Shown: positions 2,385 to 46,460 of the stretch, one piece after another
Position numbering within the stretch: position 1 is the stretch's first letter
Layout: the number at the start of each line of letters is the position of its first letter
Origin: a virus
Taxonomy: Duplodnaviria > Heunggongvirae > Uroviricota > Caudoviricetes
Strand: one strand, 5' to 3'
IMG/VR virus record: IMGVR_UViG_3300037455_001096
Length of the DNA: 64,000 nt
The notes under the pieces: generated by a model
Seen by the model: the letters and a program-made list of their open reading frames with translations, nothing else
Database searches by the model: none
Told to the model about the DNA's origin: nothing
Made by a program: the position numbers and the translations under genes

Positions 2385-3101
2385 ATGCAAGTAAACATCA
2401 AGTTATTCGAAGGCGGCACTATGCCCGTCAAAATCCACGAAACCGATGCTGGTTTCGACTGTTACGCACGTTCAAAAAAGAACCGTAACGAATACCAAGT
2501 TGAATACGAACTCGGATTCTCAATCGAGATACCGAGAGGCTATATGGGGCTTATGTTCCCCCGTTCAAGCATCTGCAATTTCGATTTGATTCTGTCAAAT
2601 TGCGTTGGCGTTGTTGACAGCGGGTATCGGGGCGAGGTCAAGGCTGTATTCAACCGAATCAACTCGCCTATGGAAAAAGACTACGAGGTCGGCGAGCGCG
2701 TGTGTCAAATGATTATAATCCCGTATCCCGAAATCGAACTTATACAAGTCGATGAGTTGGGAACGGGTGAGCGTGGGGCAAACGGGTTCGGCAGCAGCGG
2801 CGTGAAAAAGCGGGACTTGGAAACCGAAATCGGCAAAAAACTCTTGGAGTGCAATATGGCGTTCATCGATTGGAAGAACAGTGTGTTGGACGCGGCGGAA
2901 AACAAGCCAGAAGAATGGAGAAGGGGGCAGTCGGTATACAACATCCTTTTCGCCATATACCCCAATGAAGTCGGGGTCGTGCAGCAGGAACGGCATATAG
3001 ACTGTTTCAATGACGACAGCAAGATTGACGATTTCCTCCAAGCGGTCTATGTCGAAATCGACAACAACAAAAAGACCATAACAAAAAACCCTCTGTTTTA
3101 A
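2385..3101 (+). CDS. dut: dUTP diphosphatase (dUTPase) with a C-terminal extension
   Basis: dUTPase motifs AGFDCYA (motif I), PRSSI (motif II) and VGVVDSGYRGEV (motif III) in the N-terminal 150 aa. An extra ~90 aa C-terminal tail follows. Confidence 0.85.
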   Translation: MQVNIKLFEGGTMPVKIHETDAGFDCYARSKKNRNEYQVEYELGFSIEIPRGYMGLMFPRSSICNFDLILSNCVGVVDSGYRGEVKAVFNRINSPMEKDYEVGERVCQMIIIPYPEIELIQVDELGTGERGANGFGSSGVKKRDLETEIGKKLLECNMAFIDWKNSVLDAAENKPEEWRRGQSVYNILFAIYPNEVGVVQQERHIDCFNDDSKIDDFLQAVYVEIDNNKKTITKNPLF

Positions 3102-7333: not shown

Positions 7334-8380
7334 TCAGCGGAGGCTCTTGAAATCAAAGAGAATCTTGTGCATTTTATGAAGATACTTTTCGAGGATTTCG
7401 AGAAAGAACGCGCAAAGACCCGCATAGGGTTCTGAACCTTTGAAAACAGCCTTCAGTTTGGGGAACGCCGTTCCGAAATCCGTGATGAACCTTTCGTCAA
7501 GCAGCCTGCCCACGCACTCCGCATCGAATTTTTCCTGCAATATTTTCTTTATCGCAATATATCGTTTATATATTGCGCTGTCATATTCGTTGGACGTGAC
7601 CGAGATTTGGTTGGAGAATGTTTGCAGGTATGCGTTCATTTCCGTCTTGGCAAAATAATAGGGCAGCATATAATAGAAGTCACGCAGGTTGTTCTCTTTG
7701 GTTATGTAGTCCGTGTTGACCGTATAGGAATTGCCCGCCCAATGACCGAATGTCTCAAGCGTGACGGTCTGCTTCTTGACATTGTTTTCCGCTCTGTATT
7801 TCTTGTAGATTTTCTTCATACGGGTTATCTGCGCACGCTCGTATCCTTTTATGAAATATGTGTCGAATACGTGCATAAACTCGTGTTTGACAGTACCGCG
7901 CATCTCCTGCTCGAAGAAACCCGACTGTATGAAAGCGCGGACATCCATAAGGTTGTCAAACGAAAGCCCGTATGCGTTGATGTAGATTATGTGGAGGCGT
8001 GTTCCGTCACCGAGTTTCCTTGTTGTGTGGCTTCCCCTCTCGTTGCCCACGGTGGATAGCAGGTTCGCCGAATCGTGCGACTTGCGGTTGCTCCTAACGT
8101 CCCTGCCGACAGACACCTTGACCGCTATTGTCGATTGTGTGTCGGTAAGGAACACGGGATAGCGGAACTCGCGCCTCTGCGCTTTGAACCAATCCGCTAT
8201 CTCGTCATACATCCACATATAATACAATGTGTATTTCTTTCTGTCGTATTCAAGACGCTTTTTCGATATATGCGATATGTTCCATCGCACGAAGTCGATG
8301 AGGTCTTCCGCAAGAGCGTCAAGGGAATTGTCGCCTCCAAGTATGTGGTGCATATCTGTTCTGAAAGATGTGTCAATCAT
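7334..8380 (-). CDS. hypothetical protein (348 aa)
   Basis: Long ORF with no recognisable motif. Confidence 0.55.
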   Translation of the reverse strand: MIDTSFRTDMHHILGGDNSLDALAEDLIDFVRWNISHISKKRLEYDRKKYTLYYMWMYDEIADWFKAQRREFRYPVFLTDTQSTIAVKVSVGRDVRSNRKSHDSANLLSTVGNERGSHTTRKLGDGTRLHIIYINAYGLSFDNLMDVRAFIQSGFFEQEMRGTVKHEFMHVFDTYFIKGYERAQITRMKKIYKKYRAENNVKKQTVTLETFGHWAGNSYTVNTDYITKENNLRDFYYMLPYYFAKTEMNAYLQTFSNQISVTSNEYDSAIYKRYIAIKKILQEKFDAECVGRLLDERFITDFGTAFPKLKAVFKGSEPYAGLCAFFLEILEKYLHKMHKILFDFKSLR

Positions 8381-9374
8381 TCTTCGGGTTCACTTTGTCG
8401 CAGAACACATTTTCGTCATAATGATTCTCGATTGCGTTTTTGTAAAACAATACGGTTTCTTCACTGATTGGGGTGTAATGATGAGCGTCAACGCCGACAT
8501 TCAAGCCGTTGCGTTTCACCAAGCCCTTCTCGTGTATGTGTCCGAAAAGGTAGAACGCTTTGTCCTCCGCAAGTTCGGTCAGAGGCTCGTGTACGCAACA
8601 CATATCCTTGAAACGCAGGATTTCACCGACCGAATCTTTCACAAGGACTTTCGGGTTGCTGACCGCGAAATTCGGGTCGTCCCTTTCGTAGTTTCCTTTG
8701 AGATAGACCATAGAACCGAAATTCAGTATGTCAAGGTACTCCAACTCCCCGAAATCTCCGAGATGAAACACTATGTCGTTGCCGAACACGGTCTTGTTCC
8801 AATTTGAAACAAGCGTCAAATTCATTTCCTCAACGTTCTTGAACGGGCGTTGGCTCAATTCCAAATGACGGTCAGAGCCGAAATGCGTGTCCGATGTGAA
8901 AAACAGTTTCGGTATGCGGGCGTACTTGTTGGCGACCGCTGTGGCGACTTCCGTCATCGTGGAATAGCAGGGTATGCCTTTCTTCTCGCAGACCCATTTG
9001 ATGTACTCACAATGCTCGCTGCCTTCGGGTACGCCGACAATGAGAGCCTGCGGTGCTTTGCTACTCCAAATACCGAACTCTATGTTTGTCGTCAGTGCGG
9101 GATGCTTGTCGTTTCTGTCAATCCAAAACACTATGGTCGATGCGATGTGCAGTCCGAGTGTTTCCCAAGTGCATTGCTTGTCGTAATAGTCTTTGTCATT
9201 CGTGTCGTAGTTCGGGTTGGTCGGGTTGATTATGTCGCCCTTGAAACCGCATTGTTCAAGTTCGGCAATCATCTCGTCCCTCCAATCCCCGTCACCAGCC
9301 TTTCGCGGACAAGCACCCGCGAGAAATATGGCGTTTTTTATGTTTGTGAATGGTGCTAATGGTTGGTATATCAT
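8373..9374 (-). CDS. fusion protein: N-terminal nucleoside 2-deoxyribosyltransferase/DNPH1-like domain and C-terminal calcineurin-like metallophosphoesterase
   Basis: The N-terminus has NAIFLAGACPRK and a later E..G acidic motif, matching the NDT/Rcl fold. The C-terminus has FTSDTHFG (DxH), HLGDFG (GD) and GNYERD (GNHE-like) phosphoesterase motifs. Confidence 0.55.
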   Translation of the reverse strand: MIYQPLAPFTNIKNAIFLAGACPRKAGDGDWRDEMIAELEQCGFKGDIINPTNPNYDTNDKDYYDKQCTWETLGLHIASTIVFWIDRNDKHPALTTNIEFGIWSSKAPQALIVGVPEGSEHCEYIKWVCEKKGIPCYSTMTEVATAVANKYARIPKLFFTSDTHFGSDRHLELSQRPFKNVEEMNLTLVSNWNKTVFGNDIVFHLGDFGELEYLDILNFGSMVYLKGNYERDDPNFAVSNPKVLVKDSVGEILRFKDMCCVHEPLTELAEDKAFYLFGHIHEKGLVKRNGLNVGVDAHHYTPISEETVLFYKNAIENHYDENVFCDKVNPKND

Positions 9375-9376
9375 AT

Positions 9377-10378
9377 CTATTGTATTTTATATTCGTTTTG
9401 TGTAATGGGTTCTAAACCGAATTTGTCGTGGCGTTCCTTGAAATATCCGCCCATCATATTTATAAATTCTTGGTTTTCACCTATGTTCGTGTATTCATCG
9501 CTGCACAGCGTGTTTATCTTGTTGCGTTCAGCGTTGATTATTGTCGTGATTATCAGATAAGGGTAGGGGATATACACGTTGTCGTACAATGTAGCCGTCT
9601 TGTACAGCAGGCTCAAATCCTCGCAGGCAAGTCTGTCGTAATAACCGCCGACCTCTTTCAAAACTTTTTTCTTTCCGATAAATCTCTCGCATCCGTAATT
9701 GAACAAAGTCCACGGCTCGCAAGCCTTCCTTATATTGTAAAAATAAAAACGGAACACATTGTCGTAACGAAATTCATACGGCTTATTCAGAATATAGCCG
9801 TTCCTTGATACGTGGTTGTCCGCGTATTCTCGGAATGCTTTGTCGCTTTCATACAATGCTTTATATTCATCGGTTTTCTCAAAAAGACCAAATCCGTCAG
9901 CGTTGCACCAATTCAAGTTGGACTTGTGTGTGAAGAAGTCGCCGTTATCGCAGTCCATAGCCATAGAGTCGATGAAGTCGGCGTTTACGATATCGGCATC
10001 GGTACGCTCCACGGCATCGGCGATGTATTCCAACGACCTTGTGTTCAGAAAGTCGTCATAGTCGAGTGTGAAGATTATATCGTTGTCGGAGCAGGTGGTT
10101 AGTTCAACACAGCGGTTCTTCAGTTTGCCGATTCTTCCGTCAGCAAGTCCGATGCCGCTGAACGGCTCGTGATATACTTTGATTTTGTCCCTGCAATCCT
10201 GCAAGCCGTCAAATAAGGGCGTGGCAAAGCACTCCCGTACATATTCCTCGGCGAAACCCTGCTCCGAGTTGTCGAGGATAATGTACTCCCAATCCCTATA
10301 TGTCTGTGTGCATACGCCGTACAGCCGAATATTCCACCAAGGGAGGTTTTTGTGTATCGGGGTTATTATGCTTATCAT
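9377..10378 (-). CDS. glycosyltransferase family 2-like protein (333 aa)
   Basis: N-terminal SIITPIHKN...YIILDNS and a DxD-like LDYDDF motif, consistent with a GT-A fold. Confidence 0.5.
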   Translation of the reverse strand: MISIITPIHKNLPWWNIRLYGVCTQTYRDWEYIILDNSEQGFAEEYVRECFATPLFDGLQDCRDKIKVYHEPFSGIGLADGRIGKLKNRCVELTTCSDNDIIFTLDYDDFLNTRSLEYIADAVERTDADIVNADFIDSMAMDCDNGDFFTHKSNLNWCNADGFGLFEKTDEYKALYESDKAFREYADNHVSRNGYILNKPYEFRYDNVFRFYFYNIRKACEPWTLFNYGCERFIGKKKVLKEVGGYYDRLACEDLSLLYKTATLYDNVYIPYPYLIITTIINAERNKINTLCSDEYTNIGENQEFINMMGGYFKERHDKFGLEPITQNEYKIQ

Positions 10379-10384
10379 CTCGCA

Positions 10385-11176
10385 TCAAATCGGAAGTTCA
10401 TAACGTGTGTCCTGCGGGTGTTTTTCCTCAAGCAGGAAATCGTATTTCTCGTGATATTTTTTGACAAGCAGCAGGAAATGGCGCAGCCAACCTTTCAGTT
10501 CGTCCTTTGTCACGACAACCAACTGCGGTATGTCGTTCTCGACCGCAATCCACAGTTCCGCGTGGTCAAGCACAACCCCGTACATCTGATAATAGGCAAG
10601 GAAATAAGCGGAAAGTTGCAGGTAATAGTTGGTAAGGTATTCCTGCGTCTTTTTCTTGCGGGCGGTCTTGAAGTCGAGAAGCACGTTCTTGCCTTCCTTG
10701 TTGCGGTAAACACAGTCAACACGACCAGCGTAGCCGCCCTGCTCGAATGAATACAGCGTGTTTTCCATCTCGATGATTGAGTCAACTCTCTCGAAAAACC
10801 CGCAAAGGTACAGACTGTCGAACAGTTTGTCGCCGCAGGCGAGTTCCTCCGCCGTGTATCCCTCCTGCTTGACGAACTCCAACATTTTCCTGCTGACATC
10901 ATCGAACCTGCGTTTTCTGTCCTTTATATCGGACAGAAACCAATATTCGAGTTTTTGGTGCATACACGTTCCTCGGTTGGCGGAGAATTTGGTGATTCGG
11001 TCAGCCTCTTCCTCGCCTATGCGCTTGCGCCAAGCGTCAAGACCCGAATGGTCTGTCATAGCACCCAATATGGTAGTGACGGAAGGCAGTTTCATACGCC
11101 TGCCCTCGGATTCGATGTTGTAGTACCTTTTGTTGTCTATGGTTTCCGTCAGATTCAGACTTTCCGCTGTTGCCAT
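10385..11176 (-). CDS. PD-(D/E)XK family nuclease (phage-type exonuclease), 263 aa
   Basis: LPSVTTILG near the N-terminus and VDCV...LLDFKTARK (D...D-x-K) core. Start placed at the internal ATG (MATAESLN...) just downstream of the upstream gene stop. Confidence 0.5.
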   Translation of the reverse strand: MATAESLNLTETIDNKRYYNIESEGRRMKLPSVTTILGAMTDHSGLDAWRKRIGEEEADRITKFSANRGTCMHQKLEYWFLSDIKDRKRRFDDVSRKMLEFVKQEGYTAEELACGDKLFDSLYLCGFFERVDSIIEMENTLYSFEQGGYAGRVDCVYRNKEGKNVLLDFKTARKKKTQEYLTNYYLQLSAYFLAYYQMYGVVLDHAELWIAVENDIPQLVVVTKDELKGWLRHFLLLVKKYHEKYDFLLEEKHPQDTRYELPI

Positions 11177-11178
11177 AA

Positions 11179-11628
11179 CTATTTGATTAAAGTTGTGAGA
11201 TAATGGATTAGGTATCCCGCGCCGTACAATGTTCCGAGAATGCCGAGGATATAGGCGAACACCACAATCGGCTTGCTCCACTTTCTGCCTGCCGACAAAA
11301 CAATCAGAATAGAGTTCGTGCCTTCGAACAACTCGTATTTGTCGGGGTAAATAATCAAATCGGACAACATAAGTTTCGTCAGCAGTTCCGATGCGGGAAC
11401 AAGTTGCTGCTTGATGTATGTGTCAATCATCATATTGCGGATTTCGTAGTCCTTGCGGGAATTTATCGGCATTTTCATAATCTCTTCGGGAATGTTTATC
11501 ACCGTGTAGATTCTGCCAATCCAATCGCAGAAAAACCCGACCTCCTCAAGTTCCTTTGCGTGTTCCTTGACCGTTTGTCGGACAACACGCCAAACCTTCC
11601 ATTCGTGGATAATTTTCTTTATAATCAT
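11179..11628 (-). CDS. hypothetical protein with a C-terminal transmembrane segment (149 aa)
   Basis: C-terminal hydrophobic stretch IVVFAYILGILGTLYGAGYLI. Confidence 0.45.
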   Translation of the reverse strand: MIIKKIIHEWKVWRVVRQTVKEHAKELEEVGFFCDWIGRIYTVINIPEEIMKMPINSRKDYEIRNMMIDTYIKQQLVPASELLTKLMLSDLIIYPDKYELFEGTNSILIVLSAGRKWSKPIVVFAYILGILGTLYGAGYLIHYLTTLIK

Positions 11629-12314
11629 TTTTTCCTGCTTTTCAGTTGTTTGACCACTTTCTTGAGCATATTCATCTCAACGGGCGCATAGTCCCAAAAG
11701 TCGCATCTCAAATTCACCCTGCCCTCGTTGATGTTTGTTTCAGCCTTGCCGCCGTGGAAATTAAGCACGCCGTCATCCTTGCCTTCCCATTCGAGAAGCG
11801 GAACGGTTGACAGCACTATGCCGTATTCGGGCATCTCGAACACTTGCGACCTCAAAATGGTGAAATCCTGCACCAAGTCGGTCTTGACGATAATCGTGTT
11901 CAATGCCTGCTCTGGGGACGACACCCCGAAATTGTCGCAGGCTATGTCGAAGAGTATGTTGTCGCTTTTCACGTTGTAGTCCGACAGAATGTTCGCCGAA
12001 GTCTTGGTGTCCTCCATCATAAGGTTGTCGAGGAGGTTTCTGTCCGTGCGTATCGCGTATTTGTCGGTTACGGTCGGCAGAAGCACCTTCATACCGCGCA
12101 GCGATTCTATGGTGTTTCTGAAAATGAACGGGTTGTAGATGAAGTTGCCGAGAATGAAAACCAAGTCAAAGTCGCCGACAGTGGTGTTCCATTTTTCAAT
12201 AATGGCGGAATTCATTTGGAATGTCCCTTCAAAGGGTCGCTTGTATTCGTCAATGATGTTCGGTCTGTCAAGCCAAAGGTCTGACGTGAAAAAGATTCTT
12301 GTTTTTCGTTTCAT
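11625..12314 (-). CDS. metallophosphoesterase-like protein (229 aa)
   Basis: N-terminal IFFTSDLWLD and LVFILGNF resemble calcineurin-like phosphoesterase motifs. The match is weaker than in gene 8373..9374. Confidence 0.45.
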   Translation of the reverse strand: MKRKTRIFFTSDLWLDRPNIIDEYKRPFEGTFQMNSAIIEKWNTTVGDFDLVFILGNFIYNPFIFRNTIESLRGMKVLLPTVTDKYAIRTDRNLLDNLMMEDTKTSANILSDYNVKSDNILFDIACDNFGVSSPEQALNTIIVKTDLVQDFTILRSQVFEMPEYGIVLSTVPLLEWEGKDDGVLNFHGGKAETNINEGRVNLRCDFWDYAPVEMNMLKKVVKQLKSRKK

Positions 12315-12784
12315 TAGAAATCCTCGTTAGTTATCATTAAATCATAACCCGTGAACCCCTCGAACTGCTTTCGGTCGGCGTTAAGCCTTCTTTCAACGAC
12401 ATCGGCATCGCATCTTTCGGTGAGTCGTCTGCGCCGAGTTTCTTCATCGGGACATAATAATATAATAAAAAATTCTTTTTTTCGCTCACCGAGCATTGAA
12501 ATATATTCGGGTGTCATAACAAACAAGTCGCAGGATTTGAGGTCATCGTTCAAGATTCCGTATTTCCAATTGTTGTACGTGTTGCTGACACCGAACCCGC
12601 CGTGTTCGAGGATGAAATCGAAATCGTCCTCCGAAACGAATGTGTAGTCGCTGTCGGATTCGCCTACACGCATAGGTCTTGTTGTGTATGGGCGACCGTA
12701 GGTCATACCCGTTTTTTCCAATCGCCTGCGCAGGGTGTCCTTACCCGATGCGCCTGGTCCAGTAATGATAATCTTCAAGTTCAT
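12314..12784 (-). CDS. guanylate kinase-like nucleoside monophosphate kinase (156 aa)
   Basis: P-loop ITGPGASGKDTL plus YTTRPMRVGESDSDYTFVSEDDF, matching the Gmk TTRPxRxGExDGxDYxFVS signature. Confidence 0.75.
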   Translation of the reverse strand: MNLKIIITGPGASGKDTLRRRLEKTGMTYGRPYTTRPMRVGESDSDYTFVSEDDFDFILEHGGFGVSNTYNNWKYGILNDDLKSCDLFVMTPEYISMLGERKKEFFIILLCPDEETRRRRLTERCDADVVERRLNADRKQFEGFTGYDLMITNEDF

Positions 12785-12880: not shown

Positions 12881-13255
12881 TTACTCTTTTTTTTCACCAA
12901 GATGTTTCAGAGACAACGGATTGTTGCAGTTTTCTTTCTGTGTTACCCATCGCAAGTTGCTTACAAGCGTCCCATCAACGTCAACGACATTATTCTGCCG
13001 ATTGGTATCAATATGGTCTATGCAAGGTTTGTTTTCTGGATTCGGCAAAAACGCTTCCGCGACAAGTCTATGCACTGTGTATAATTTTCCATCAATGCCA
13101 ACAATCAAATATCCGTGACCGTTGTCGGTCAGTTTACAAAGTTTTGCATAACCCTTGTTGCGCCAATTCAAGCATTTTACCCGTCCAAAATTACTTACTT
13201 GATAGCGAGAATTTTCGATGCCGTTGATTGTCACAGTTTTCCAATATTCACCCAT
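12881..13255 (-). CDS. HNH homing endonuclease (NUMOD4-like N-terminus + HNH)
   Basis: YQVSNFGRVKC...VHRLVAEAF...CIDHIDTNRQNN...NLRW. The track ORF starts at a TTG; the ATG two codons in is preferred. Confidence 0.85.
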   Translation of the reverse strand: MGEYWKTVTINGIENSRYQVSNFGRVKCLNWRNKGYAKLCKLTDNGHGYLIVGIDGKLYTVHRLVAEAFLPNPENKPCIDHIDTNRQNNVVDVDGTLVSNLRWVTQKENCNNPLSLKHLGEKKE

Positions 13256-13262
13256 ATTCAAT

Positions 13263-15662: not shown

Positions 15663-16469
15663 TTATCTTGACTTGTAATAATGCTTTGCAAGGTCATAAT
15701 CACATTTATTATCATCTGCCCTTAATACACCACAGACGGTATTGGGAAGATATCCGTAAAAATGCGGTTCGTCATAAATCAAATTATCATTTCCACTGCA
15801 ATAAAAATCTCCACCCACTTTTTGCGGTGCGCCTTCAAGTGTGGTCAATCCACAATCATTGCAATCAAAATCTCCACCCACTTCCTGCGGTGCGCCTTCA
15901 AGCGTAGTCAATCTTTTGCACACATAGCAAGTAAAATCTCCACCAACTTTTTGCGGTGCGCCTTCAAGCGTGGTCAAATTATTCCAACTGCAATCAAAAT
16001 ACTCACCCACTTCCTGCGGTGCGCCTTTAAGTGTGGTTAAAAGGTTATGACTACATCCAAAAAACCCACTCACTTTCTGCGGTGCGCCTTCAAGTGTGGT
16101 TAGACCAAGTTTAAAACAACGAAAATGACCTTTAACAACACCGAACTTAATCAATAGTTTACCGTCCGATACTAAATTTCCATCCACGTCTATATCACCA
16201 TCACAATCATATAGACCCGTCATCTTGTTCCACACAAGATTATTTTTATTTATGAAATTACGTACATTCTCATCAACATAGGGTTCTTCTTTGTTCATAT
16301 TGGCGAGTCTGTCTTTCGTAATTGGATGAATATTCAGTTTTTCGTTTATGTATTGACTTGCAGTGCCTTTTGACACAGAATATTTGTGTCCGTTACTCAT
16401 AGATGTTCTTACCGCCGTTTCATTTACACACTTTGCAGCAAACTCGTCTATTTTCATTATATTTGCCAT
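15663..16469 (-). CDS. leader-tagged LRR-like repeat protein; dispersed member of the paralogous family
   Basis: Contains YINEKLNIHPITKDRL, then ~22-aa repeats LTTLEGAPQKVGGDFxC. Start placed at the internal ATG (MANIMKIDEF); MKIDEF at 16457 is an alternative. Confidence 0.65.
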   Translation of the reverse strand: MANIMKIDEFAAKCVNETAVRTSMSNGHKYSVSKGTASQYINEKLNIHPITKDRLANMNKEEPYVDENVRNFINKNNLVWNKMTGLYDCDGDIDVDGNLVSDGKLLIKFGVVKGHFRCFKLGLTTLEGAPQKVSGFFGCSHNLLTTLKGAPQEVGEYFDCSWNNLTTLEGAPQKVGGDFTCYVCKRLTTLEGAPQEVGGDFDCNDCGLTTLEGAPQKVGGDFYCSGNDNLIYDEPHFYGYLPNTVCGVLRADDNKCDYDLAKHYYKSR

Positions 16470-16763
16470 TGTATTGAATTTATATTCTTGATATTTATAC
16501 AGACAATCTCCTGCAAGACAAAAAAAGGATGATTCCGATAAAAAATCAAACAACGGCGAAATGGAAGAAAAAATCGCCGCGCCCGCTTCAGCATTTTTAG
16601 GTTTAAAAAATGCTCCACTCTTTACCTATAATTACAGATTTGGTAAAAACGCTATATATGATTGATATATTGTATGTTTCGCCAAAATTTTTTTATGAGT
16701 TTTATGCAGCGGGCAGTGCCTCTGAACGGGTGCTTTATAAATAATATGGCAAAATATCGGTGA

Positions 16764-28602: not shown

Positions 28603-29640
28603 ATGCTTCTCGGACTTGACGACATCACGCTTATCCCCGCACAAATGTCAACTGTGCGTTCAAGGTCGGAATGCGACCCGTATTATCACGAAAAAAGAAC
28701 GATGAACGGGAACTACCTGCCTTTGTTTGCCGCGCCTATGAGTTCGCTCATTGACACGAAAAACTACAACGTGTTCGAGCGTTGCGGCATACACACGGTG
28801 ATTCCGCGCAATGTTCCCGTTGATGACAGAATCTCGCTGTGCAAATATACGTTCTGCGCATTCGGCTTGCGGGAAATCGAGGAAAAATTCATCAACGACA
28901 CGCCGCTTGGATTTTGCAAAATGAGCGGTTGGAACGATGCCTATGTATGCATCGACATTGCCAACGGGCATATGGAGTATCTCTACCAACTCTGTATGAA
29001 ACTCAAAGACAGATACCAAGACCGTATCCACATTATGACGGGCAATGTCGCCAACCCGAACACATACGCCTATATCTGCGATGTGTATAACGGTGTTGTC
29101 GATTATATCCGCTTGGGTATCGGCGGCGGCTCTTGCTGCACAACCTCGGCTAACACGGCAATCCACTATCCTATGGCTACGCTGATAGCGCGGTGCTATG
29201 ACGAGCGTGCTTCCCGAAACGGTGAGGGTTGCCCGAAAATCATCGCTGACGGCGGCTTCGATTCATTCGACAAGATTATAAAGGCTCTCGCCTTGGGTGC
29301 TGACTATGTTATGCTCGGCAGCGTAATTGCGAAATCGGAGGAAGCCTGCGGGCAGACCTATGATGAGGAAAACCTCCGTGGCAGAAGAACGTTTCGCGAT
29401 TACTACGGTATGTCAACCAAGAAAGCGCAGAAGGAATTGGGTAACGCTGAACTGAAAACCTCGGAGGGCATCACCCGAAAGGTTATGGTCGAATACCCGA
29501 TTTCAAAATGGGTTGACAACTTCACATCGTATCTGCGTTCCGCTATGTCCTATATGGACGTGCGAAGCATCGGCGAGTTTGTCGGCGGTGTCGATTATTC
29601 AAGCATTTCCCCAAACGCATTCAAATCATTTTACAAATAA
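28603..29640 (+). CDS. GMP reductase (GuaC)-like enzyme of the IMPDH/GMPR TIM-barrel family (345 aa)
   Basis: DDITLIPAQMSTVRSRSECD, LPLFAAPMSSL, CIDIANGH...GIGGGSCCTT (catalytic Cys loop), IIADGGF and ADYVMLGS align with E. coli GuaC. The length matches a CBS-less GMPR. Confidence 0.8.
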   Translation: MLLGLDDITLIPAQMSTVRSRSECDPYYHEKRTMNGNYLPLFAAPMSSLIDTKNYNVFERCGIHTVIPRNVPVDDRISLCKYTFCAFGLREIEEKFINDTPLGFCKMSGWNDAYVCIDIANGHMEYLYQLCMKLKDRYQDRIHIMTGNVANPNTYAYICDVYNGVVDYIRLGIGGGSCCTTSANTAIHYPMATLIARCYDERASRNGEGCPKIIADGGFDSFDKIIKALALGADYVMLGSVIAKSEEACGQTYDEENLRGRRTFRDYYGMSTKKAQKELGNAELKTSEGITRKVMVEYPISKWVDNFTSYLRSAMSYMDVRSIGEFVGGVDYSSISPNAFKSFYK

Positions 29641-31243: not shown

Positions 31244-32122
31244 ATGGGAGCAGGAAGTTGGACACCAATGGCATACGCTTCGTACTCTGTTGAAAACAAC
31301 AAGAGTTACGATGCTGACACGCATCGCGTGAGCGGTCAAGTCTATCACAAGTCCTCGTTGGACGATTCACTGAATCCGAGAATGTTTTCGATTCGTGAGT
31401 GTGTCGATTCGGAGGAGCATCCGAACACAATCCCCATTATCCTCGCGCTTGACGTGACGGGTTCTATGGGTCGCTCCTGCATTGAGACCGCTGAAGCGTT
31501 GGGTGTCATTATGAACGAATTGTACAAAAAGTACAAGGACATCGAGTTCTGCGTTATGGGTATCGGCGATTTGGCTTATGACGAAGCACCAATTCAGATG
31601 AGCCAATTCGAAAGCGATGTCCGTATCGCCGAGGCACTTGACAAAATCTATATGGAACAAGGCGGTGGCGGAAACGCCTACGAGAGTTATACCGCAGCGT
31701 GGTATATGGCTCTGCGCCGCACTTCCCTCGACCGTATCGCCAAGCAGGGCAAGAAGGGCATCATTATCACTATGGGTGATGAGCCGCTCAACCCCTATCT
31801 TCCCAAGAGTCAGTTGAATTACGCCATCAAAGGCAGCGAGCAGGGTGACATCGACACGAAGAAACTCTATGCAGAGGTTTCCGAGAAGTTTGATGTCTAC
31901 CACATCGCTGTTAATGATAGCGACAACTGCTACGCTCGTTATTCCGCGAGAATCAAAGATTCATTCGGTGAGATTCTCGGACAAAGACTGAAAGTATCAA
32001 CTGTTAACGAACTCGCAAACGCCATTACGGAGTGCATTGACGATTCCCTTGCAGGAGACTACGAGAATATCGCCGAGCAACCGACCAATATGGTGAATGA
32101 GGAAGGCGAAATCCATTGGTAG
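31244..32122 (+). CDS. von Willebrand factor A (VWA) domain protein
   Basis: PIILALDVTGSMG is a MIDAS-like motif. A strong AGGAGGA ribosome-binding site lies upstream. Confidence 0.6.
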   Translation: MGAGSWTPMAYASYSVENNKSYDADTHRVSGQVYHKSSLDDSLNPRMFSIRECVDSEEHPNTIPIILALDVTGSMGRSCIETAEALGVIMNELYKKYKDIEFCVMGIGDLAYDEAPIQMSQFESDVRIAEALDKIYMEQGGGGNAYESYTAAWYMALRRTSLDRIAKQGKKGIIITMGDEPLNPYLPKSQLNYAIKGSEQGDIDTKKLYAEVSEKFDVYHIAVNDSDNCYARYSARIKDSFGEILGQRLKVSTVNELANAITECIDDSLAGDYENIAEQPTNMVNEEGEIHW

Positions 32123-32123
32123 T

Positions 32124-33233
32124 ATGAACAACGCGAGAATAATAATCGGCGCGAACTACGGTGACGAGGGCAAAGGGACTGTCACCGCGCATTACGCGAA
32201 ACATTCTGACAACGCTCTTAACATTCTGACAAACGGGGGCGCACAACGTGGGCATTCCATTGTCAGCGAACACGGAAGTCATACGTTCCAGCATTTTGGT
32301 TCGGGGACTTACTACGGCGCGGCGAATTATTATTCTCGCTTTTTCATTCTCAATCCTATGCAGTTCGCAAAGGAGTACGATGAACTTGTTGTGAAACCGC
32401 CCGTAATCTATCGGCACGAGGAATGCCGTTGGAGTACGCCATACGATATGATGGCTAACGCCATCACGGAAGAGTTGCAGAGACGGCACGCTTCCTGCGG
32501 TATGGGTATTTGGAACACGATAAAGCGTTATCGGGAAACGGGTACGAGAACCTTCGACAGTTTTTGGAACTTGCCTACTCGTATGAAAATCGAGGAACTC
32601 TATAAGGTAAAGTCCTATTATGAGAAACAGATTACGATTCCGAATAATTGGAAACAAGTTTGGAATTCCGAGGTTCTTATCGTGAACTACCTTTACGACT
32701 GCAAGTTTATGTTCGAACACACGGAAGTCAACAAGGACGAGCGTGTGCTTGCAGAACTCTACACAGACCTTATCTTCGAGAACGGGCAGGGATTGCTGCT
32801 GCGCGACACGGGTAAGGACACTTACGACACCACGCCTTCGGATACGGGTTTGACCGATTCCGCAGTCATACTCTACAAGATGGGTGTTATGGACAGCAAC
32901 GGGAACGCTGTTGGTGATTCAAAAATAACCGCCCACTACGTGACACGCCCGTATCTGACGAGGCACGGTGACGGTGGTATGGAAAACGAATCAAACAGAA
33001 CGGCTCTGTCAAAAGATGTTATGTCAGACCGCACAAACCAATACAACAGATTCCAAGGCAAATTCCGTTACGGGAAACTTGACCTTGACAACTTGAAGAA
33101 AAGAATCGAGTTGAACACGGGCGTAGTTCCTTACGAACTTGAACTGACCCATTGTGACGAGATGGACAGATTGGGTGAGTTCAGACAACTGTTCGACAAA
33201 ATCAATGTGTATGACAAACCCGAAATCGAATGA
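32124..33233 (+). CDS. adenylosuccinate synthetase family enzyme (PurA-like; PurZ candidate), 369 aa
   Basis: MNNARIIIGANYGDEGKGT aligns with the PurA N-terminus and P-loop GDEGKGK. GGAQRGHS aligns with the GGHNAGHT catalytic His region. FENGQGLLLRDTGKDTYDTTPSDT aligns with [24 protein letters not shown]. The protein is shorter than bacterial PurA, as PurZ and archaeal-type enzymes are. Confidence 0.8.
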   Translation: MNNARIIIGANYGDEGKGTVTAHYAKHSDNALNILTNGGAQRGHSIVSEHGSHTFQHFGSGTYYGAANYYSRFFILNPMQFAKEYDELVVKPPVIYRHEECRWSTPYDMMANAITEELQRRHASCGMGIWNTIKRYRETGTRTFDSFWNLPTRMKIEELYKVKSYYEKQITIPNNWKQVWNSEVLIVNYLYDCKFMFEHTEVNKDERVLAELYTDLIFENGQGLLLRDTGKDTYDTTPSDTGLTDSAVILYKMGVMDSNGNAVGDSKITAHYVTRPYLTRHGDGGMENESNRTALSKDVMSDRTNQYNRFQGKFRYGKLDLDNLKKRIELNTGVVPYELELTHCDEMDRLGEFRQLFDKINVYDKPEIE

Positions 33234-33718
33234 ATTGGATTAGCGTAAACGACAGATTTCCCGAAGACGGGCAGCGCGTAATTGTTTGGAACAACAAGTA
33301 CGGCGAGGTTACGTTGCAGGTTTACAACAAGGAATACCAATGTTGGGATTCGGAGAATGGCGTTATCGCCGAGTTCGGACTTGACGAAGAATGCGGAAAC
33401 GGTGTGAGGATAATCGAGCATTGGATGCTTCTCCCGACAAAACCGAGTTCCGACAACACGGTACAGAAAGAAACCGCGCCGTTTGGCGTGGGTGATACTG
33501 TATGGCGCAAAGACCTTTGCACAAACGAGGCTGTTCAAACCAAGATTCGTTCATATCAAGTCGCGATTATGCACGATGACACCAAATGCATCGTGTATCA
33601 CACGGAGGATGATTGCCATACCGTTAATATAGACGGCAATCCCCGTAGCACGGACATATTTGCAACGAAAGATGAATGTGATTCGTTTCCGCCGTTATTT
33701 GACAATTCACAAGATTAG
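33230..33718 (+). CDS. DUF551-like phage protein
   Basis: MNWISVNDRFPEDGQRVIVW is the typical DUF551 N-terminus. Its ATG overlaps the upstream TGA stop. Confidence 0.55.
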   Translation: MNWISVNDRFPEDGQRVIVWNNKYGEVTLQVYNKEYQCWDSENGVIAEFGLDEECGNGVRIIEHWMLLPTKPSSDNTVQKETAPFGVGDTVWRKDLCTNEAVQTKIRSYQVAIMHDDTKCIVYHTEDDCHTVNIDGNPRSTDIFATKDECDSFPPLFDNSQD

Positions 33719-34590: not shown

Positions 34591-35385
34591 CTACATATAG
34601 TATTCGATAATCACGCCGTTGTCCAATGTGACGTAGTTGTCGTTCAGTTCCTTTGCGTCAAGTTGGCTGAAGTCGTAACCAAGATTGACGAGTGTTTCGT
34701 AAGACAGTTCGTTGGTTTCTTCGGCTACTTCGAAGTATTCGTCCATTTCCTCGTTTTCGCCGTTGTAGTTGTTTTTCAGATAGGTAACAAGCCAAGACTG
34801 TCCGCTGAACTCGAATATCATATTCTCGATTAGTTCGTTTATGTCTTTCCAAGATGTGCATATTCCGTGGTCGAAATACTCGTTGTTTGACGGATAATCG
34901 TCAACAATTTCTTTCGCTTCTTTTAACGAAATGCCACAGTTTCTCGATATTATACCGAGTTCGTCTTTTTTCACTTTTTCGATGAGGCGGCTGTTTTTGT
35001 CTGACAGAAGCGTTATCACAATAGAATCCAACATTTCCTGCGGGCAACTGTTCAATTTGAATGCGTTGAACTGCTCTTCGCTCAACACGGTTTCGTAGTC
35101 ACTGTATTCCGCGTTTTTGTCGAGTCTGTTTGTGAAATTCGCGCCCTGCAACATTATCTGACCGTCAATGTCTGTCAGCAAGTTCCCGTTTTCTATTTTC
35201 ACGTATGAAACAGCGTCTCTGTCTTCCTGCGAGATGTTTTTGAACGCGAACACGCAGCCTATGTAGTTGGTGTAATATGACTTTGGCTTCGGTTTTTCAT
35301 CGGTATACTTTTTCAACTGTTCTTTTGTAATCGGATGTATGTCGAGTTTCTCGTTTATGAATTCTTGTGAATTGAGTATCTTCAT
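34591..35385 (-). CDS. leader-family protein with a non-LRR C-terminal domain (264 aa)
   Basis: N-terminus MKILNSQEFINEKLDIHPITKEQL, with an unrelated C-terminus. Confidence 0.65.
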   Translation of the reverse strand: MKILNSQEFINEKLDIHPITKEQLKKYTDEKPKPKSYYTNYIGCVFAFKNISQEDRDAVSYVKIENGNLLTDIDGQIMLQGANFTNRLDKNAEYSDYETVLSEEQFNAFKLNSCPQEMLDSIVITLLSDKNSRLIEKVKKDELGIISRNCGISLKEAKEIVDDYPSNNEYFDHGICTSWKDINELIENMIFEFSGQSWLVTYLKNNYNGENEEMDEYFEVAEETNELSYETLVNLGYDFSQLDAKELNDNYVTLDNGVIIEYYM

Positions 35386-35394
35386 AATTATGTA

Positions 35395-36147
35395 TTATTT
35401 TTCAATTTTCCCTTTAATCCAACTTGGTTTTTGTTTTGGTAATTTAAGGTTTGGGTTGTTTTTACAACGAAAATCCTTTCCGACTTCCTGCGGTGCGCCT
35501 TCAAGTGATGTCAGTTGGTTATCGCTGCAATCAAAATTCGCACCTACTTCCTGCGGTGCGCCTTCAAGTGAAGTCAGATTATTACTATTGCAAATAAAAC
35601 TCCCATCCACTTTATTCGGTGCGCCTTCAAGAGAGGTCAAATTATTGTCACTACAATAAAAACCTCCACTGACTTCCTGCGGTGAACCTTCAAGTGATGT
35701 CAGTTGGTTTTCGCTGCAATCAAAAAGACCGCCGACTTCCTGCGGTGCGCCTTTAAGCGAGGTTAGTTGGTTGTATTTACACCAAAAATCATCGCCAACT
35801 TCCTGCGGTGCGCCTTCAAGCGATGTCAGTTGGTTGTAACCGCAATCAAAATAACCACCGACCTTATGCGGTGCGCCTTCAAGACTTGTTAATCCAACAT
35901 CCGAACAATCAAAATCACCTTTGATTATTCCAAATTTGATTTTTAATTTACCATCTTTATCGACTACACGGGAATCAATGGTAATGTCGCGGTCACAGTC
36001 GTATAGTTTTGATAATTTGTTCCACACAAGTACGTATTGGTCGATGAATGACTTAACCATCGGCTCATCAAACCTTTTGTCGTTTTTGCCAATAGGTTTG
36101 ATGTTCAGTTTCTCGTTGACATATTCTTGTGTATTGAGTATTCTCAT
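35395..36147 (-). CDS. leader-tagged LRR-like repeat protein (250 aa)
   Basis: MRILNTQEYVNEKLNIKPIGK leader, the YDCDRDI...GKLKIKFGIIKGDFDC linker, then ~22-aa repeats N(Q)LTSLEGAPQEVGxxFxCxx. Confidence 0.75.
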   Translation of the reverse strand: MRILNTQEYVNEKLNIKPIGKNDKRFDEPMVKSFIDQYVLVWNKLSKLYDCDRDITIDSRVVDKDGKLKIKFGIIKGDFDCSDVGLTSLEGAPHKVGGYFDCGYNQLTSLEGAPQEVGDDFWCKYNQLTSLKGAPQEVGGLFDCSENQLTSLEGSPQEVSGGFYCSDNNLTSLEGAPNKVDGSFICNSNNLTSLEGAPQEVGANFDCSDNQLTSLEGAPQEVGKDFRCKNNPNLKLPKQKPSWIKGKIEK

Positions 36148-36148
36148 A

Positions 36149-36982
36149 TCAGTTGATAAATTTTCCTCCTATTCGTTTTGGCTTTCCGCTCAAAGTCCGC
36201 AAAGGGTTGTCGCTGCAATCAAAAAGACCGCCTACTTTCTGCGGTGCGCCTTTGAGTGTTGTCAGACTGTTGTATTCGCATTTGAAATCGCCATTGACCT
36301 CAACGGGTGAGAACTCCAACGATTTTAGTTCGTTGCCGCTGCAATCGAAGTTTCCGCCTATTTTCTGCGGTGCGCCTTTTAGTGACACCAAATCGTTTGC
36401 GCAGCAGTTGAAGTTTCTTTTCACTTCCTGCGGTGCGCCTTCGAGTGTTTTTAGGTTGTTTCTGTGGCAGTAGAAACTGCCGCCTATCTCTTTCGGCGAA
36501 CCCGACAATGACTGCAAGTGCGAGTCGTTGCAGTTGAAGTCGTTTCCAACGTATTCGGGTGCGCCTTCGAGCGACAGCAGATTGTTTTTCTCGCAATGGA
36601 AGTCAAGACCCACGTATTCGGGTGCGCCTTCAAGCGTTTGTAAAAGGTTGCCCGCACAATGGAAATTTCTTTTCACGTATTTCGGTGCGCCTTTCAGAGA
36701 AACAAGGTTCTGCTCGCTGCAAAAGAAACTTCCGTTCACCACGCCGAAGTTTATCTTGAACCCGTTGCCGTCCTTTCTCACAATGCTTTTGCCCGCGTAC
36801 ACATCGTTGTCGCAGTCGTATGCCTGCGTTGTCGGATTGTATTTTAAGCGGTATGTTTTTATGAATGACTCACATTCGGGGTCGGTGTTTCTTCCACTGC
36901 CCATTTTATCGAGAATTCCTTTTGGTATAGGCTTGATGTCCAATTTTTCGGATGTGAGTTCGTATGTTTTCAGAATCTTCAT
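36149..36982 (-). CDS. leader-tagged LRR-like repeat protein (277 aa)
   Basis: MKILKTYELTSEKLDIKPIPK leader and a repeat array L(Q/V)SL(K/E)GAP(K/E)YVxxxFxCxxN. Confidence 0.75.
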   Translation of the reverse strand: MKILKTYELTSEKLDIKPIPKGILDKMGSGRNTDPECESFIKTYRLKYNPTTQAYDCDNDVYAGKSIVRKDGNGFKINFGVVNGSFFCSEQNLVSLKGAPKYVKRNFHCAGNLLQTLEGAPEYVGLDFHCEKNNLLSLEGAPEYVGNDFNCNDSHLQSLSGSPKEIGGSFYCHRNNLKTLEGAPQEVKRNFNCCANDLVSLKGAPQKIGGNFDCSGNELKSLEFSPVEVNGDFKCEYNSLTTLKGAPQKVGGLFDCSDNPLRTLSGKPKRIGGKFIN

Positions 36983-36984
36983 AT

Positions 36985-37590
36985 CTAATTGAATGTTACT
37001 TCTCCTATCATTTCACCGCCAATCCAACTCGGTTTGTCTTTCGGCATAACGAGTCTGTCACCGAAACGATTGTAGTTGTCTTTGCAATAGAAGTTCCCGC
37101 CAACGAATTCGGGTGCGCCTTCAAGGGATGTGATGTTGTTGTGTTCACAGTTGAAGTCGCCAATGACTGTCTTTGGTGCGCCTTTTAGGTTTGTCAGATA
37201 GTTGTGGCTGCAATTGAAGTCATTCGTTTCCTGCGGTGCGCCGACAAGGGAAGTCAGATTGTTGTTGTCGCAGTAAAACGTACCGCCTACTTCGATTGGT
37301 GCGCCTTCAAGCGAAATCAGTTTGCATAGACTGCAATCAAACCAACCCTTTACCACGCCGAATTGTATGGTAAACTTCCCGTCCTTTATATCGTGTTCCG
37401 TCAGACTGACATTGCCATCGCAGTCGTAACGCCTTGTTTTTTTGTTCCAAACAAGGTGGTTGTTTTTGATGGTTGCCCTCGTTTTTTCGTCAACTTCGGG
37501 TTCGTCTGACGAGAACCTTTTATCGTCTTTTGAAATTGGCTTTATGTCGAGTTTTTCGCTTATATACTCCTCTGTGTTCAGTATTTTCAT
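36985..37590 (-). CDS. leader-tagged LRR-like repeat protein (201 aa)
   Basis: Start set at the internal MKILNTEEYISEKLDIKPISK, which overlaps the upstream stop as TAATG. Confidence 0.7.
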   Translation of the reverse strand: MKILNTEEYISEKLDIKPISKDDKRFSSDEPEVDEKTRATIKNNHLVWNKKTRRYDCDGNVSLTEHDIKDGKFTIQFGVVKGWFDCSLCKLISLEGAPIEVGGTFYCDNNNLTSLVGAPQETNDFNCSHNYLTNLKGAPKTVIGDFNCEHNNITSLEGAPEFVGGNFYCKDNYNRFGDRLVMPKDKPSWIGGEMIGEVTFN

Positions 37591-38492: not shown

Positions 38493-38494
38493 AT

Positions 38495-46438: not shown

Positions 46439-46460
46439 ATAGTATTTTTTATTGTAATAT

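Follow-up and report, generated by a model that had tools for sequence, protein, structure and literature searches.

A viral fusion of an NDT-fold PF15891 domain to a metallophosphoesterase: a possible bifunctional enzyme of NAD/ADP-ribose-type ribonucleotides

A single uninterrupted ORF of 333 aa (8373..9374, minus strand) in the window – the 64,000-nucleotide stretch of viral DNA analysed here – joins two domains: an N-terminal domain from a phage subfamily of PF15891, with an NDT/TIR-like Rossmannoid fold (aa 1-150; 8925..9374, minus strand), and a C-terminal calcineurin-like metallophosphoesterase (MPE; aa 151-333 plus the stop codon; 8373..8924, minus strand). We propose, with a probability of about 0.4, that the protein is a bifunctional enzyme in which the MPE would cleave a ribonucleotide of the NAD/ADP-ribose type and the N-terminal domain would remove or exchange the base. 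The substrates are probably such ribonucleotides rather than dNMPs or DNA building blocks: the link is one of domain-fusion logic, because other partners of the N-terminal domain are ADP-ribose-pyrophosphatase (ADPRase)-type NUDIX, NadD and NADAR. Both domains look catalytically competent, since E71 and E99 of the first and every metal ligand of the second are invariant.

Profile searches and structure prediction uphold the architecture given in a preliminary description, which had recognized an NDT-like and calcineurin-like fusion beside a GT2-like gene. In Pfam, aa 14-117 match PF15891 (Nuc_deoxyri_tr2; E 1.2e-13, 51.8 bits, cut-off 30) and aa 159-291 match PF12850 (Metallophos_2) at 23.5 bits, slightly under the cut-off of 27; in PHROG, aa 13-152 match phrog_30579 and aa 139-325 match phrog_547, 'phosphoesterase' (E 7.7e-35). 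The AlphaFold2 model is confident and rigid over both domains (pLDDT 91.9, pTM 0.91). On the minus strand the TAG of the GT2 ORF is followed after 2 nt by the ATG of the fusion, and the TGA of the fusion lies in an 8-nt overlap with the ATG of a downstream 348-aa ORF (7334..8380, minus strand), which is probably co-transcribed with the fusion because of that overlap; this ORF has an HEFMH motif, lacks a Pfam or PHROG family match and is conserved only in L001 and L009. Fusion homologues begin at a common start, and the complete two-domain form recurs across at least 120 protein clusters and 218 IMG/VR loci, mostly phage contigs of 100-425 kb: the fusion is thus a conserved family and not a frameshift artefact, and the earlier reservation that its halves might be separate genes falls away. 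The family is absent from GenBank phages, and the literature searched makes no mention of it.

By motifs and fold the C-terminal half is a member of the calcineurin-like MPE superfamily: D162-x-H164, G206-D207, G227-N228 (GNYE), H262 and G-H279-x-H281 are all intact, the metal ligands do not vary among homologues, and family-specific residues (R169, R176-P177, W192-N193, K287, D296, D320) accompany them. If the MPE were to cut nucleic acids or process their ends – attacking host DNA, or healing 2',3'-cyclic phosphate RNA ends in tRNA repair – the N-terminal domain would serve as an accessory that binds nucleotides or excises bases. A precedent is mycobacteriophage MPE gp48, whose phosphodiesterase activity harms host DNA (PMC12287305); stand-alone orthologues in Herelleviridae adjoin RNase H, 3 of 23 de-replicated groups have a T4-type RNA ligase close to the fusion, and a PD-(D/E)XK exonuclease (10385..11281, minus strand; PF12705, E 4.6e-8; phrog_298, E 1.4e-47) stands two genes upstream, 6 nt from the GT2 ORF in a common, tightly packed minus-strand block. 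However, the best structural matches of the C-terminal half are small phosphodiesterases and NDP-X pyrophosphatases (aq_1665, LpxH, YfcE, MJ0936) and not nucleases, and the ten commonest organism names among 900 tblastn matches, beyond which come six rarer ones, include no Mycobacterium phage. Moreover, an NDP-X pyrophosphatase (NUDIX) and the MPE alternate as partners of one N-terminal domain, which argues for a small-nucleotide substrate; we consider a nuclease quite improbable.

The MPE half also has relatives outside the fusion. It is orthologous to stand-alone phage 'phosphoesterases' whose genes neighbour those of RNase H or RNA ligase, a placement that would fit a nucleic-acid substrate too; on the side of NAD/ADP-ribose chemistry, a NADAR gene abuts one stand-alone homologue (L122). 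A 229-aa paralogue is present in the window itself (11625..12314, minus strand), matching phrog_547 over aa 3-62 only and the fusion by blastp at 1e-9. Its alignment shows DTH replaced by DLW and GDF by GNF, the GNY, HE and GHIH motifs missing, and an insertion of ~45 aa: this degenerate copy is probably not catalytic.

Structure comparison places the N-terminal half among N-glycosidases and transferases (NDT, MilB, DNPH1, TIR), and its signature comprises F17, R24, W31-R32, Q67, W70-E71, W84, R87, T95-T96-N97-x-E99 and Y124. The fold is a Rossmann-like NDT fold, yet by sequence the domain lies outside the DNPH1/NDT family: the fusion protein has no match to PF05014 (classical NDT, DNPH1 and MilB), which some family relatives reach weakly (30.7 bits for L169), and hhalign comparison with DNPH1 and with LlNDT gives a probability of ~1%, which is not significant. 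The family profile matches 4MCJ at E 7.5e-12 and, weakly, the ThsB cADPR synthase (E 0.005 and 0.078). The catalytic Glu of such enzymes is nonetheless in place, as the preliminary description supposed: E99 does not vary across 44 fusion homologues or 44 N-terminal domains, and shares its local register with the Glu of 4MCJ and, at weak statistics, with the DNPH1/NDT nucleophile, a correspondence of position only. E71, also invariant, falls in the register of the sugar-binding triad Asp/Asn, D72 of NDT and D80 of DNPH1, in hhalign alignments that are not significant.

Conservation of these residues bears on whether the domain is an enzyme at all. Nucleotide sensing is frequent among NDT, TIR and SLOG-type folds, oligomerization is obligate in NDT-family enzymes, and this domain is joined to several different enzymes: it might accordingly be a non-catalytic module that senses a ligand or oligomerizes, and so regulates the attached phosphohydrolase. 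A pure scaffold, however, is not expected to keep E71, E99 and the phosphate-binding-type Arg set, which are essentially invariant throughout all architectures, 58 stand-alone proteins included; a non-catalytic role is for that reason highly doubtful.

A further residue concerns the choice between ribo- and deoxyribo-substrates. The beta1 Tyr of the catalytic triad (Tyr7 in NDT, Tyr6 in DmtZ) excludes ribo-substrates (PMC4081090, PMC12884076). In the present family Phe occupies the beta1 position (F17 in the fusion) in 132 of 134 representatives; the loop Arg that follows it is found in 133 of 134. MilB, which is CMP-specific and whose preference is shifted to dCMP by the change F17Y, offers counterparts of the signature in F17, R23, D78 and E103 (PMC4081090). 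By analogy, Phe17 is the MilB-type, ribo-specific state, its equivalence to the triad Tyr being set by motif register and the start of the Pfam alignment.

Phe17 and the distance from DNPH1 and NDT in sequence speak against the DNPH1-type dNMP specificity assigned earlier. According to that idea a DNPH1/DmtZ-like dNMP N-glycosidase, coupled to a dNTP/dNDP phosphohydrolase, would deplete one canonical deoxynucleotide in the service of base exclusion or DNA modification, with GT2, Gmk, dUTPase, PurA-like and GuaC-like genes as partners. In its favour are the NDT-superfamily fold and catalytic Glu, the phage precedent in which the dAMP hydrolase DmtZ is encoded beside the dATP/dGTP hydrolase DutZ or in one chain with it (PMC12884076), the calcineurin-type enzyme of the PUA-Cal-HAD system, which turns dADP into dAMP, and a dCMP deaminase adjoining one stand-alone N-terminal-domain gene (L172). 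The nucleotide-metabolism genes named do occur in the window: a guanylate-kinase-like (Gmk-like) NMP kinase in the minus-strand block of the fusion (12314..12784, minus strand; PF00625, 27.9 bits; phrog_1815, E 2.5e-26; 59.6 bits on TIGR03263, under the cut-off of 160); a dUTPase with an ordinary dUTPase profile, which is a separate gene 5 kb from the fusion and on the opposite strand (2385..3101); and, 18-23 kb from the fusion, IMPDH/GuaC-like (28603..29640) and PurA-like (32097..33233) genes.

Base exclusion and DNA glycosylation nevertheless found no support. The PurA-like protein scores 19.4 bits on the NCBIfam PurZ model NF038379 (cut-off 300), which rules it out as PurZ within the 64-kb window; its relatives among phages are Rhizobium and Vibrio phages and Cluster C mycobacteriophages, and no known Z-genome phage is among the relatives listed. 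The GT2-type (GT-A fold) glycosyltransferase (9377..10378, minus strand; 333 aa) matches PF00535 over aa 3-134 (25.9 bits, cut-off 23.3) and has LDNS, DxD (D106/D108/D109, invariant) and ED motifs. It is a lineage-specific neighbour and not a conserved partner: its homologues total only 11, and it occurs with the fusion only in close relatives (L001, L009, L007 and L008). Its AlphaFold2 model (pLDDT 77.8) resembles a cell-envelope glycan transferase, the best Foldseek hits being TarP, SpsA (both at 4e-8), CgT, RmlT and TarS, with wall-teichoic-acid and polysaccharide transferases as fold neighbours; the 50 best of 129 fold hits (E <= 0.001) are envelope-glycan or other non-DNA glycosyltransferases, with no DNA glycosyltransferase among them. 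Nor does a hydroxymethylase or other DNA-modification gene occur among the ORFs scanned, a subset of those in the window. Since, in addition, the other partners identified for the N-terminal domain are ADPRase-type NUDIX, NadD and NADAR and not dNTPases, we judge depletion of a deoxynucleotide unlikely: of the earlier dNTP-pool proposal, nucleotide catabolism by an NDT-type enzyme with a phosphohydrolase keeps its precedent in DmtZ-DutZ, while dNTP base exclusion, DNA modification and a functional tie to GT2 are left unsupported.

The reading we prefer, cleavage of NAD/ADP-ribose-type ribonucleotides, draws on the range of partners. The N-terminal domain is carried by 1,117 representatives at 50% identity, among which large and jumbo phages predominate; the best 150 of these comprise 58 stand-alone proteins, 41 NUDIX fusions, 26 MPE fusions and 25 others, so that PF15891-NUDIX is at least as common as PF15891-MPE. 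The NUDIX partner, which Pfam verifies for 23 of 31 members, has a profile nearest to ADP-ribose/ADP-sugar pyrophosphatases (7e-6 to 3e-5), with MutT-type proteins further off (~1e-2); its likeness to ADPRases, at E ~1e-5, is limited to the NUDIX-box region. NadD and NADAR fusions are each known from a single representative: for the first, 18 of 18 PDB hits are NadD (best 2e-17), and the second is matched at E 4e-31. No NAD-salvage gene was found in the window, nor at a distance of up to 10 kb from the MPE-fusion loci, and at most 3 of the 23 groups share any one neighbour.

On this basis we infer a two-step reaction. In the first step the C-terminal, binuclear-metal MPE would hydrolyse the pyrophosphate or phosphodiester bond of an NDP-X ribonucleotide, a role that in sister proteins would fall to the ADP-ribose-pyrophosphatase-type NUDIX on the same N-terminal domain. 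In the second, the PF15891 domain would break or exchange the N-ribosidic bond of a ribosyl-5'-phosphate compound, with Glu99 as nucleophile assisted by Glu71, Phe17 admitting a 2'-OH sugar, and Arg24, Arg32 and Arg87 binding the phosphate. Candidate substrates for this step are AMP-, NMN- or ADPR-like compounds, which would yield free base and ribose-5-phosphate; the two steps may also run in reverse order. A possible purpose is to recycle or remove NAD/ADPR-derived nucleotides while a large phage infects.

Two related proposals extend this chemistry. The first, which we hold to be rather doubtful, is that the phage PF15891 subfamily as a whole is an unrecognised viral NAD+/ADP-ribose-processing family: proteins with the signature F...R...WE...TTNxE, alone or with MPE, ADPRase-type NUDIX, NadD or NADAR, would carry out Glu-dependent cleavage or exchange at ribose C1'' – the group there being nicotinamide, a base, histidine or the second ribose of cADPR isomers – and the attached pyrophosphatase would destroy or recycle ADP-ribose. 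The second is a counter-defence enzyme against Thoeris-like or ADP-ribosylation immunity, in which the N-terminal domain would open the glycosidic bond of 2'/3'-cADPR, His-ADPR or ADP-ribosylated bases and the MPE destroy ADPR. The ThsB match is consistent with this, as are the NUDIX and NADAR partners (NADARs reverse guanine ADP-ribosylation, and phages carry them against DarTG), and a signal-degrading glycosidase does exist in phages: RyDEP, a cADPR glycosidase whose fold differs from that of the N-terminal domain. However, the ThsB match is marginal, the fusion has neither a PADLOC match nor an anti-defence annotation, and genomic linkage to known anti-defence genes is lacking. Many copies of the domain, too, are stand-alone proteins of 150 aa, at least one of them at an apparently cellular locus (L171), and counter-defence is indistinguishable from simple salvage on present evidence; we give it little credence.

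At present, no front of the phage-bacterium arms race is busier than NAD/ADP-ribose chemistry (NARP1/2, Thoeris signals, Metis, aRES, RyDEP). If the N-terminal domain acts on NAD/ADPR derivatives, as a ribo-N-glycosidase or by base exchange, a new enzyme class would join viral counter-defence or nucleotide scavenging, and PF15891 and the common phage 'phosphoesterase' phrog_547 would gain a function. Were the whole subfamily to process NAD+/ADPR, large phages would have a new means of countering immunity that depletes NAD or signals through ADPR, or of drawing nucleotides from the NAD pool. Should the protein turn out instead to hydrolyse dNMPs, the DmtZ-DutZ logic would have arisen twice independently, here with another kind of phosphohydrolase.

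Several known systems invite comparison. NMNAT-ADPRase fusions of the NadM-Nudix type exist, and Metis comprises calcineurin-type NAD+ pyrophosphatases. With these, and with NARP1/NARP2 and RyDEP, the fusion would share ADPR/NAD pyrophosphate cleavage and glycosidic-bond chemistry, a theme taken from the fusion partners and set in the conflict between phage and host; the likeness to Adps, Namat, Nampt and RyDEP is thematic, by domain-fusion logic. DmtZ-DutZ, known from PurZ0-type Z-genome phages such as Gordonia phage Ghobes and in fused form from Arthrobacter phage Wayne, likewise places a phage NDT-superfamily N-glycosidase/transferase domain with a catalytic Glu next to, or in one chain with, a nucleotide pyrophosphatase; the pair degrade a nucleoside triphosphate in two successive steps, first to the monophosphate and then to the free base (PMC12884076). 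It differs in that DutZ has a dUTPase fold where the window has an MPE, in that DmtZ is closest to DNPH1/MilB with the triad Tyr-Asn-Glu whereas the window domain belongs to PF15891, is closest to 4MCJ and has Phe-Glu-Glu, and in that the 64-kb window has no PurZ. The CMP and hmCMP N-glycosidases MilB, BcmB and BlsM, and DNPH1 (Rcl), show no significant sequence similarity to the window domain, whose putative activity goes with another residue set (W31-R32, W70, W84, R87, TTN). The PF15891 structural representative 4MCJ (BDI_0649 of Parabacteroides distasonis) is stand-alone and lacks R24, R32, R87 and TTN; on the MPE side aq_1665 (PDB 1XM7), YfcE, MJ0936 and the phrog_547 phage proteins (such as Enterococcus phage EFDG1 gp186) are stand-alone too, unlike the fused MPE of the window. 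Gp334 of Bacillus phage G and its relatives in jumbo and huge phages have the same N-terminal signature, likewise placed N-terminal to a phosphohydrolase, which in their case is an ADPRase-type NUDIX and in the window an MPE.

The fusion gene occupies positions 8373..9374 on the minus strand and is a single, uninterrupted open reading frame of 333 aa; the suggestion that its halves might separate into two genes after a frameshift check can therefore be set aside. In the N-terminal domain (aa 1-150) PF15891 (Nuc_deoxyri_tr2) matches above threshold (aa 14-117, E 1.2e-13). In the C-terminal metallophosphoesterase (MPE) half (aa 151-333) PF12850 scores 23.5 bits, slightly below its cut-off of 27, and the PHROG 'phosphoesterase' family phrog_547 matches aa 139-325 (E 7.7e-35). 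The AlphaFold2 model of the protein has a pLDDT of 91.9 and a pTM of 0.91. The gene is tightly packed: on the minus strand 6 nt separate the stop of the PD-(D/E)XK exonuclease gene (10385..11281) from the ATG of a GT2-like glycosyltransferase ORF (9377..10378, 333 aa, passing the PF00535 model), 2 nt separate the GT2 TAG from the fusion ATG, and the fusion TGA overlaps the ATG of the next ORF by 8 nt. That ORF (7334..8380, minus strand, 348 aa) carries an HEFMH (HExxH-like) motif and matches no Pfam, PHROG or NCBIfam family. Pfam, PHROG and the single ORF thus bear out the observation, made in the preliminary description, of fused NDT-like and phosphoesterase domains adjoining a GT2-like gene.

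Relatives of the fusion are numerous. At least 120 protein clusters (90% identity) span 92-100% of the query and, with few exceptions, carry both Pfam domains; IMG/VR holds 218 relatives, many on contigs of 100-425 kb. T4-type gp15, NrdD and RNA ligase genes were seen in the gene contexts. Among GTDB genomes the full-length fusion occurs only about 10 times, always in MAGs from gut or rumen; the MPE domain on its own is common across cellular genomes. No deposited phage carries the fusion (0 of 900 tblastn matches reach 80% coverage) and, among the matches listed, all lie in the MPE half. The N-terminal half alone found five distinct phage or virus genomes by tblastn: phage G (gp334), three huge 'uncultured phage' genomes and virus Rctr197k. 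Existing database names are automatic ('calcineurin-like phosphoesterase family protein', 'nucleoside 2-deoxyribosyltransferase domain-containing protein'), and no PADLOC or NCBIfam model matches the protein. Literature searches on PF15891, Nuc_deoxyri_tr2, or NDT plus calcineurin in phage returned no paper on this architecture from the library searched, and those on YtoQ returned no function.

Across 44 fusion homologues the invariant residues of the MPE half are D162-T-H164, R169, R176-P177, W192-N193, G206-D207, G227-N228, H262, H279, H281, K287, D296 and D320, which amount to a complete metallophosphoesterase motif set. Structural matches to this half were aq_1665 (15.6), LpxH (9.9), YfcE (8.9), MJ0936 (8.8) and an MPE nuclease (8.8), and a profile of the fusion family recovered 1XM7 (1.5e-10) and MJ0936 (1e-3) from the PDB. 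The half is orthologous to phage and bacterial stand-alone 'phosphoesterases' that share its motifs, such as EFDG1 gp186. Three genes upstream of the fusion is a degenerate paralogue of this half (11625..12314, minus strand), enlarged by an insertion of about 45 aa; its catalytic motifs are essentially all gone and, given its conservation in the syntenic relative L001, it may be a pseudo-enzyme. In Herelleviridae a Rosetta-stone comparison found MPE genes in tandem and no NDT-like neighbour. These phages share a cluster of three phosphoesterases after the RNase H gene: in Enterococcus phage EFDG1 (L165, 18593-21298) two tandem phrog_547-type genes and a NinI-like phosphatase gene directly follow it.

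Whether the N-terminal domain is a DNPH1/NDT-type enzyme, as first proposed, receives a divided answer: the fold agrees, but the sequence family does not, there being no PF05014 match. Its invariant residues in the same 44 homologues are W31, R32, P51, Q67, E71, R87, E99 and Y124, and the catalytic Glu, whose loss would have told against the assignment, is present. The fusion-family profile matches 4MCJ (7.5e-12) and, weakly, the TIR protein ThsB (5e-3); a single N-domain from the relative locus L169, searched against the PDB by phmmer, gave only noise. Alignment with DNPH1 and LlNDT by hhalign was not significant (probability about 1%), a lead more than a test, and served for the local register alone, in which E99 falls opposite the catalytic Glu and E71 opposite the Asp that binds the sugar. 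In the NDT superfamily the catalytic triad is Tyr, Asp/Asn and Glu, the Tyr being credited with excluding ribose (PMC12884076). MilB has Phe17 at the Tyr position, and F17Y switches its preference from CMP to dCMP; its R23, in the loop after beta1, binds phosphate (PMC4081090). The N-domain family parallels this pattern: of 134 anchored representatives, 132 have Phe at the beta1 position, 133 have an Arg no more than five residues further on, and 133 carry the WE motif. Where Pfam matches PF05014 in relatives, its position 1 falls on the Ile just before the beta1 Phe. Judged by motifs, the combination F17/R24/E71/T95-T96/E99 looks closer to that of an N-glycosidase acting on ribonucleoside-5'-phosphates than to that of a deoxy-specific enzyme. 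Because 4MCJ lacks R24, R32, R87 and the TTN motif of the phage N-domains, the latter form a distinct subfamily. That the N-domain is a non-catalytic sensor seems to us improbable.

The most informative test was a survey of the other fusion partners of the N-domain. Searching 1.84 billion representatives exhaustively with phmmer yielded 1,117 N-domain matches, of which the best 150 were classified: 58 are stand-alone, 41 carry the C-terminal domain of the gp334 type, 26 an MPE and 25 something else. The gp334-type domain is a NUDIX hydrolase (PF00293 in 23 of 31 members, best E 6.6e-10). An earlier two-sequence profile gave no signal against the PDB; the 31-sequence profile finds ADP-ribose/ADP-sugar pyrophosphatases first (8WV3, 9JAX, NUDT5; 7e-6 to 3e-5), UDP-glucose and GDP-mannose pyrophosphatases second, and MutT-type enzymes far lower (~1e-2). 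Among the other proteins, one joins NADAR to PF15891 (E 4e-31), and one joins NadD to it, with nicotinate/nicotinamide-mononucleotide adenylyltransferases making up 18 of 18 PDB matches (best 2e-17). Contexts of four stand-alone N-domain genes are heterogeneous. NadD, NADAR and NUDIX seeds run against all fetched loci and the window matched once, at a NADAR-domain ORF that overlaps and follows a stand-alone MPE homologue in a Bacteroidaceae MAG (L122:6001-7177). One signature domain thus pairs with either of two unrelated (pyro)phosphohydrolases and now and then with an NAD/ADP-ribose enzyme.

These partners shape our tentative reading of the fusion, to which we assign a probability of roughly 0.4. 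The MPE half would fill the role that falls to the ADPRase-type NUDIX in the sister proteins, that of an NDP-X pyrophosphatase or phosphodiesterase, and the N-terminal half would be a Glu99-dependent N-ribosyl hydrolase or transferase, acting on a ribosyl-5'-phosphate product or precursor (AMP-, NMN- or ADPR-like). Substrate, order of the two steps and biological purpose are all things that we infer. An MPE half that is instead a nuclease or RNA-end-healing enzyme has a precedent in mycobacteriophage gp48 and stands against the pyrophosphatase partners of the sister proteins; we think it improbable. A dedicated anti-signal or anti-ADP-ribosylation role shares the NADAR and NUDIX partners with the two-step reading, and seems somewhat less remote, if still unlikely. 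Owing to the partner spectrum, an NAD/ADP-ribose role is directly testable.

A conserved-operon comparison of 23 de-replicated fusion groups found no neighbour common to more than 3 of them, and a functional link to the GT2, the Gmk-like gene (12314..12784, minus strand) or the exonuclease is therefore rejected. Only the closest relatives (L001 and L009, 82% identity; L007 and L008, 61%) have a GT2-like gene within 10 kb of the fusion. Just 11 members of the GT2 family turn up among 5.8 billion proteins, and its model is closest to the envelope-glycan enzymes TarP, SpsA, CgT, RmlT and TarS. The divergent PurA-like ORF (32097..33233, plus strand, 378 aa) and the IMPDH/GMP-reductase-like ORF (28603..29640, plus strand, 345 aa) both fall far below every curated NCBIfam cut-off. 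The former retains GDEGKG, is assigned to a PurZ-type PHROG and bears the pipeline label '2-aminooxy adenylosuccinate synthetase'; it scores 19 bits against a cut-off of 300 on NCBIfam PurZ, is far below the PurA cut-offs as well, and by these scores is not PurZ. Its clade comprises Rhizobium T4-like phages, Vibrio phages of ~190 kb and Cluster C mycobacteriophages, and we know of no Z-genome phage among the relatives listed; with the PurZ score, this led us to reject a Z genome. The preliminary interpretation is supported in part; no evidence of base exclusion or DNA glycosylation was seen in the 64 kb. Directly after the PurA-like gene lies a DUF551 ORF (33230..33718, plus strand); DUF551 is fused to PF15891 elsewhere (protein P0383).

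In gene content the window resembles part of a large phage, with a gp32-like SSB, a dUTPase (2385..3101, plus strand, with a C-terminal extension of ~100 aa lacking a family match), a GH108 endolysin, very large structural ORFs and collagen-like fibre proteins; it contains no tRNA genes, and megablast found no nucleotide-level match to the region among GenBank phages. Record names place the related contigs and MAGs in ruminant and gut samples; together with a Fib_succ_major (Fibrobacter succinogenes major paralogous domain) ORF at 62823..63584 (plus strand), this suggests a gut or rumen origin, and the ORF might be a sign of a host of the Fibrobacter or Bacteroidota type. An HNH/NUMOD4 homing-endonuclease ORF (12881..13261, minus strand) separates a 387-aa ORF from the Gmk-like gene; because these two are adjacent and HNH-free in L001, it has the appearance of a mobile insertion. 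That relative carries a TnpB/IS605 OrfB-type gene (Cas12f-like TNB domain; L001:1-793) extending beyond the start of its stretch. On the plus strand, a 104-aa ORF (44128..44442) is matched by nine PHROG families without a known function, in each case at their C-terminal ends (E down to 1.8e-27), and seems to be a small domain that has been shuffled widely, and 44495..46030 encodes a 511-aa SPFH/Band-7 and flotillin-domain protein. A 732-aa ORF (52576..54774, minus strand) combines a PGA_cap (CapA-type) domain with a MATCAP-like (tyrosine carboxypeptidase family) region. Thirteen paralogous ORFs, mostly on the minus strand (15663..16553, 34591..39385, 42294..42731, 46118..52567), share an N-terminal 'EKLNIxP' motif, and those of them that were searched match no Pfam family; seven also carry 5-10 copies of 'L-x-G-A-P-x-x-V-x-G-x-F-x-C', which looks like a leucine-rich repeat.

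The two-step reading has precedents. DmtZ-DutZ joins an NDT-type domain to a nucleotide pyrophosphatase (PMC12884076); a deoxy-specific, DmtZ-like role for the phage protein would follow that architecture, and runs against the beta1 Phe of its N-domain; we hold it to be unlikely. For the MPE half, Metis is a calcineurin-type enzyme that cleaves NAD+, and another enzyme of that type cleaves dADP. The fusion would thus represent a known kind – an NDT-superfamily glycosidase type joined to a nucleotide phosphohydrolase – in what appears to be a new variant.
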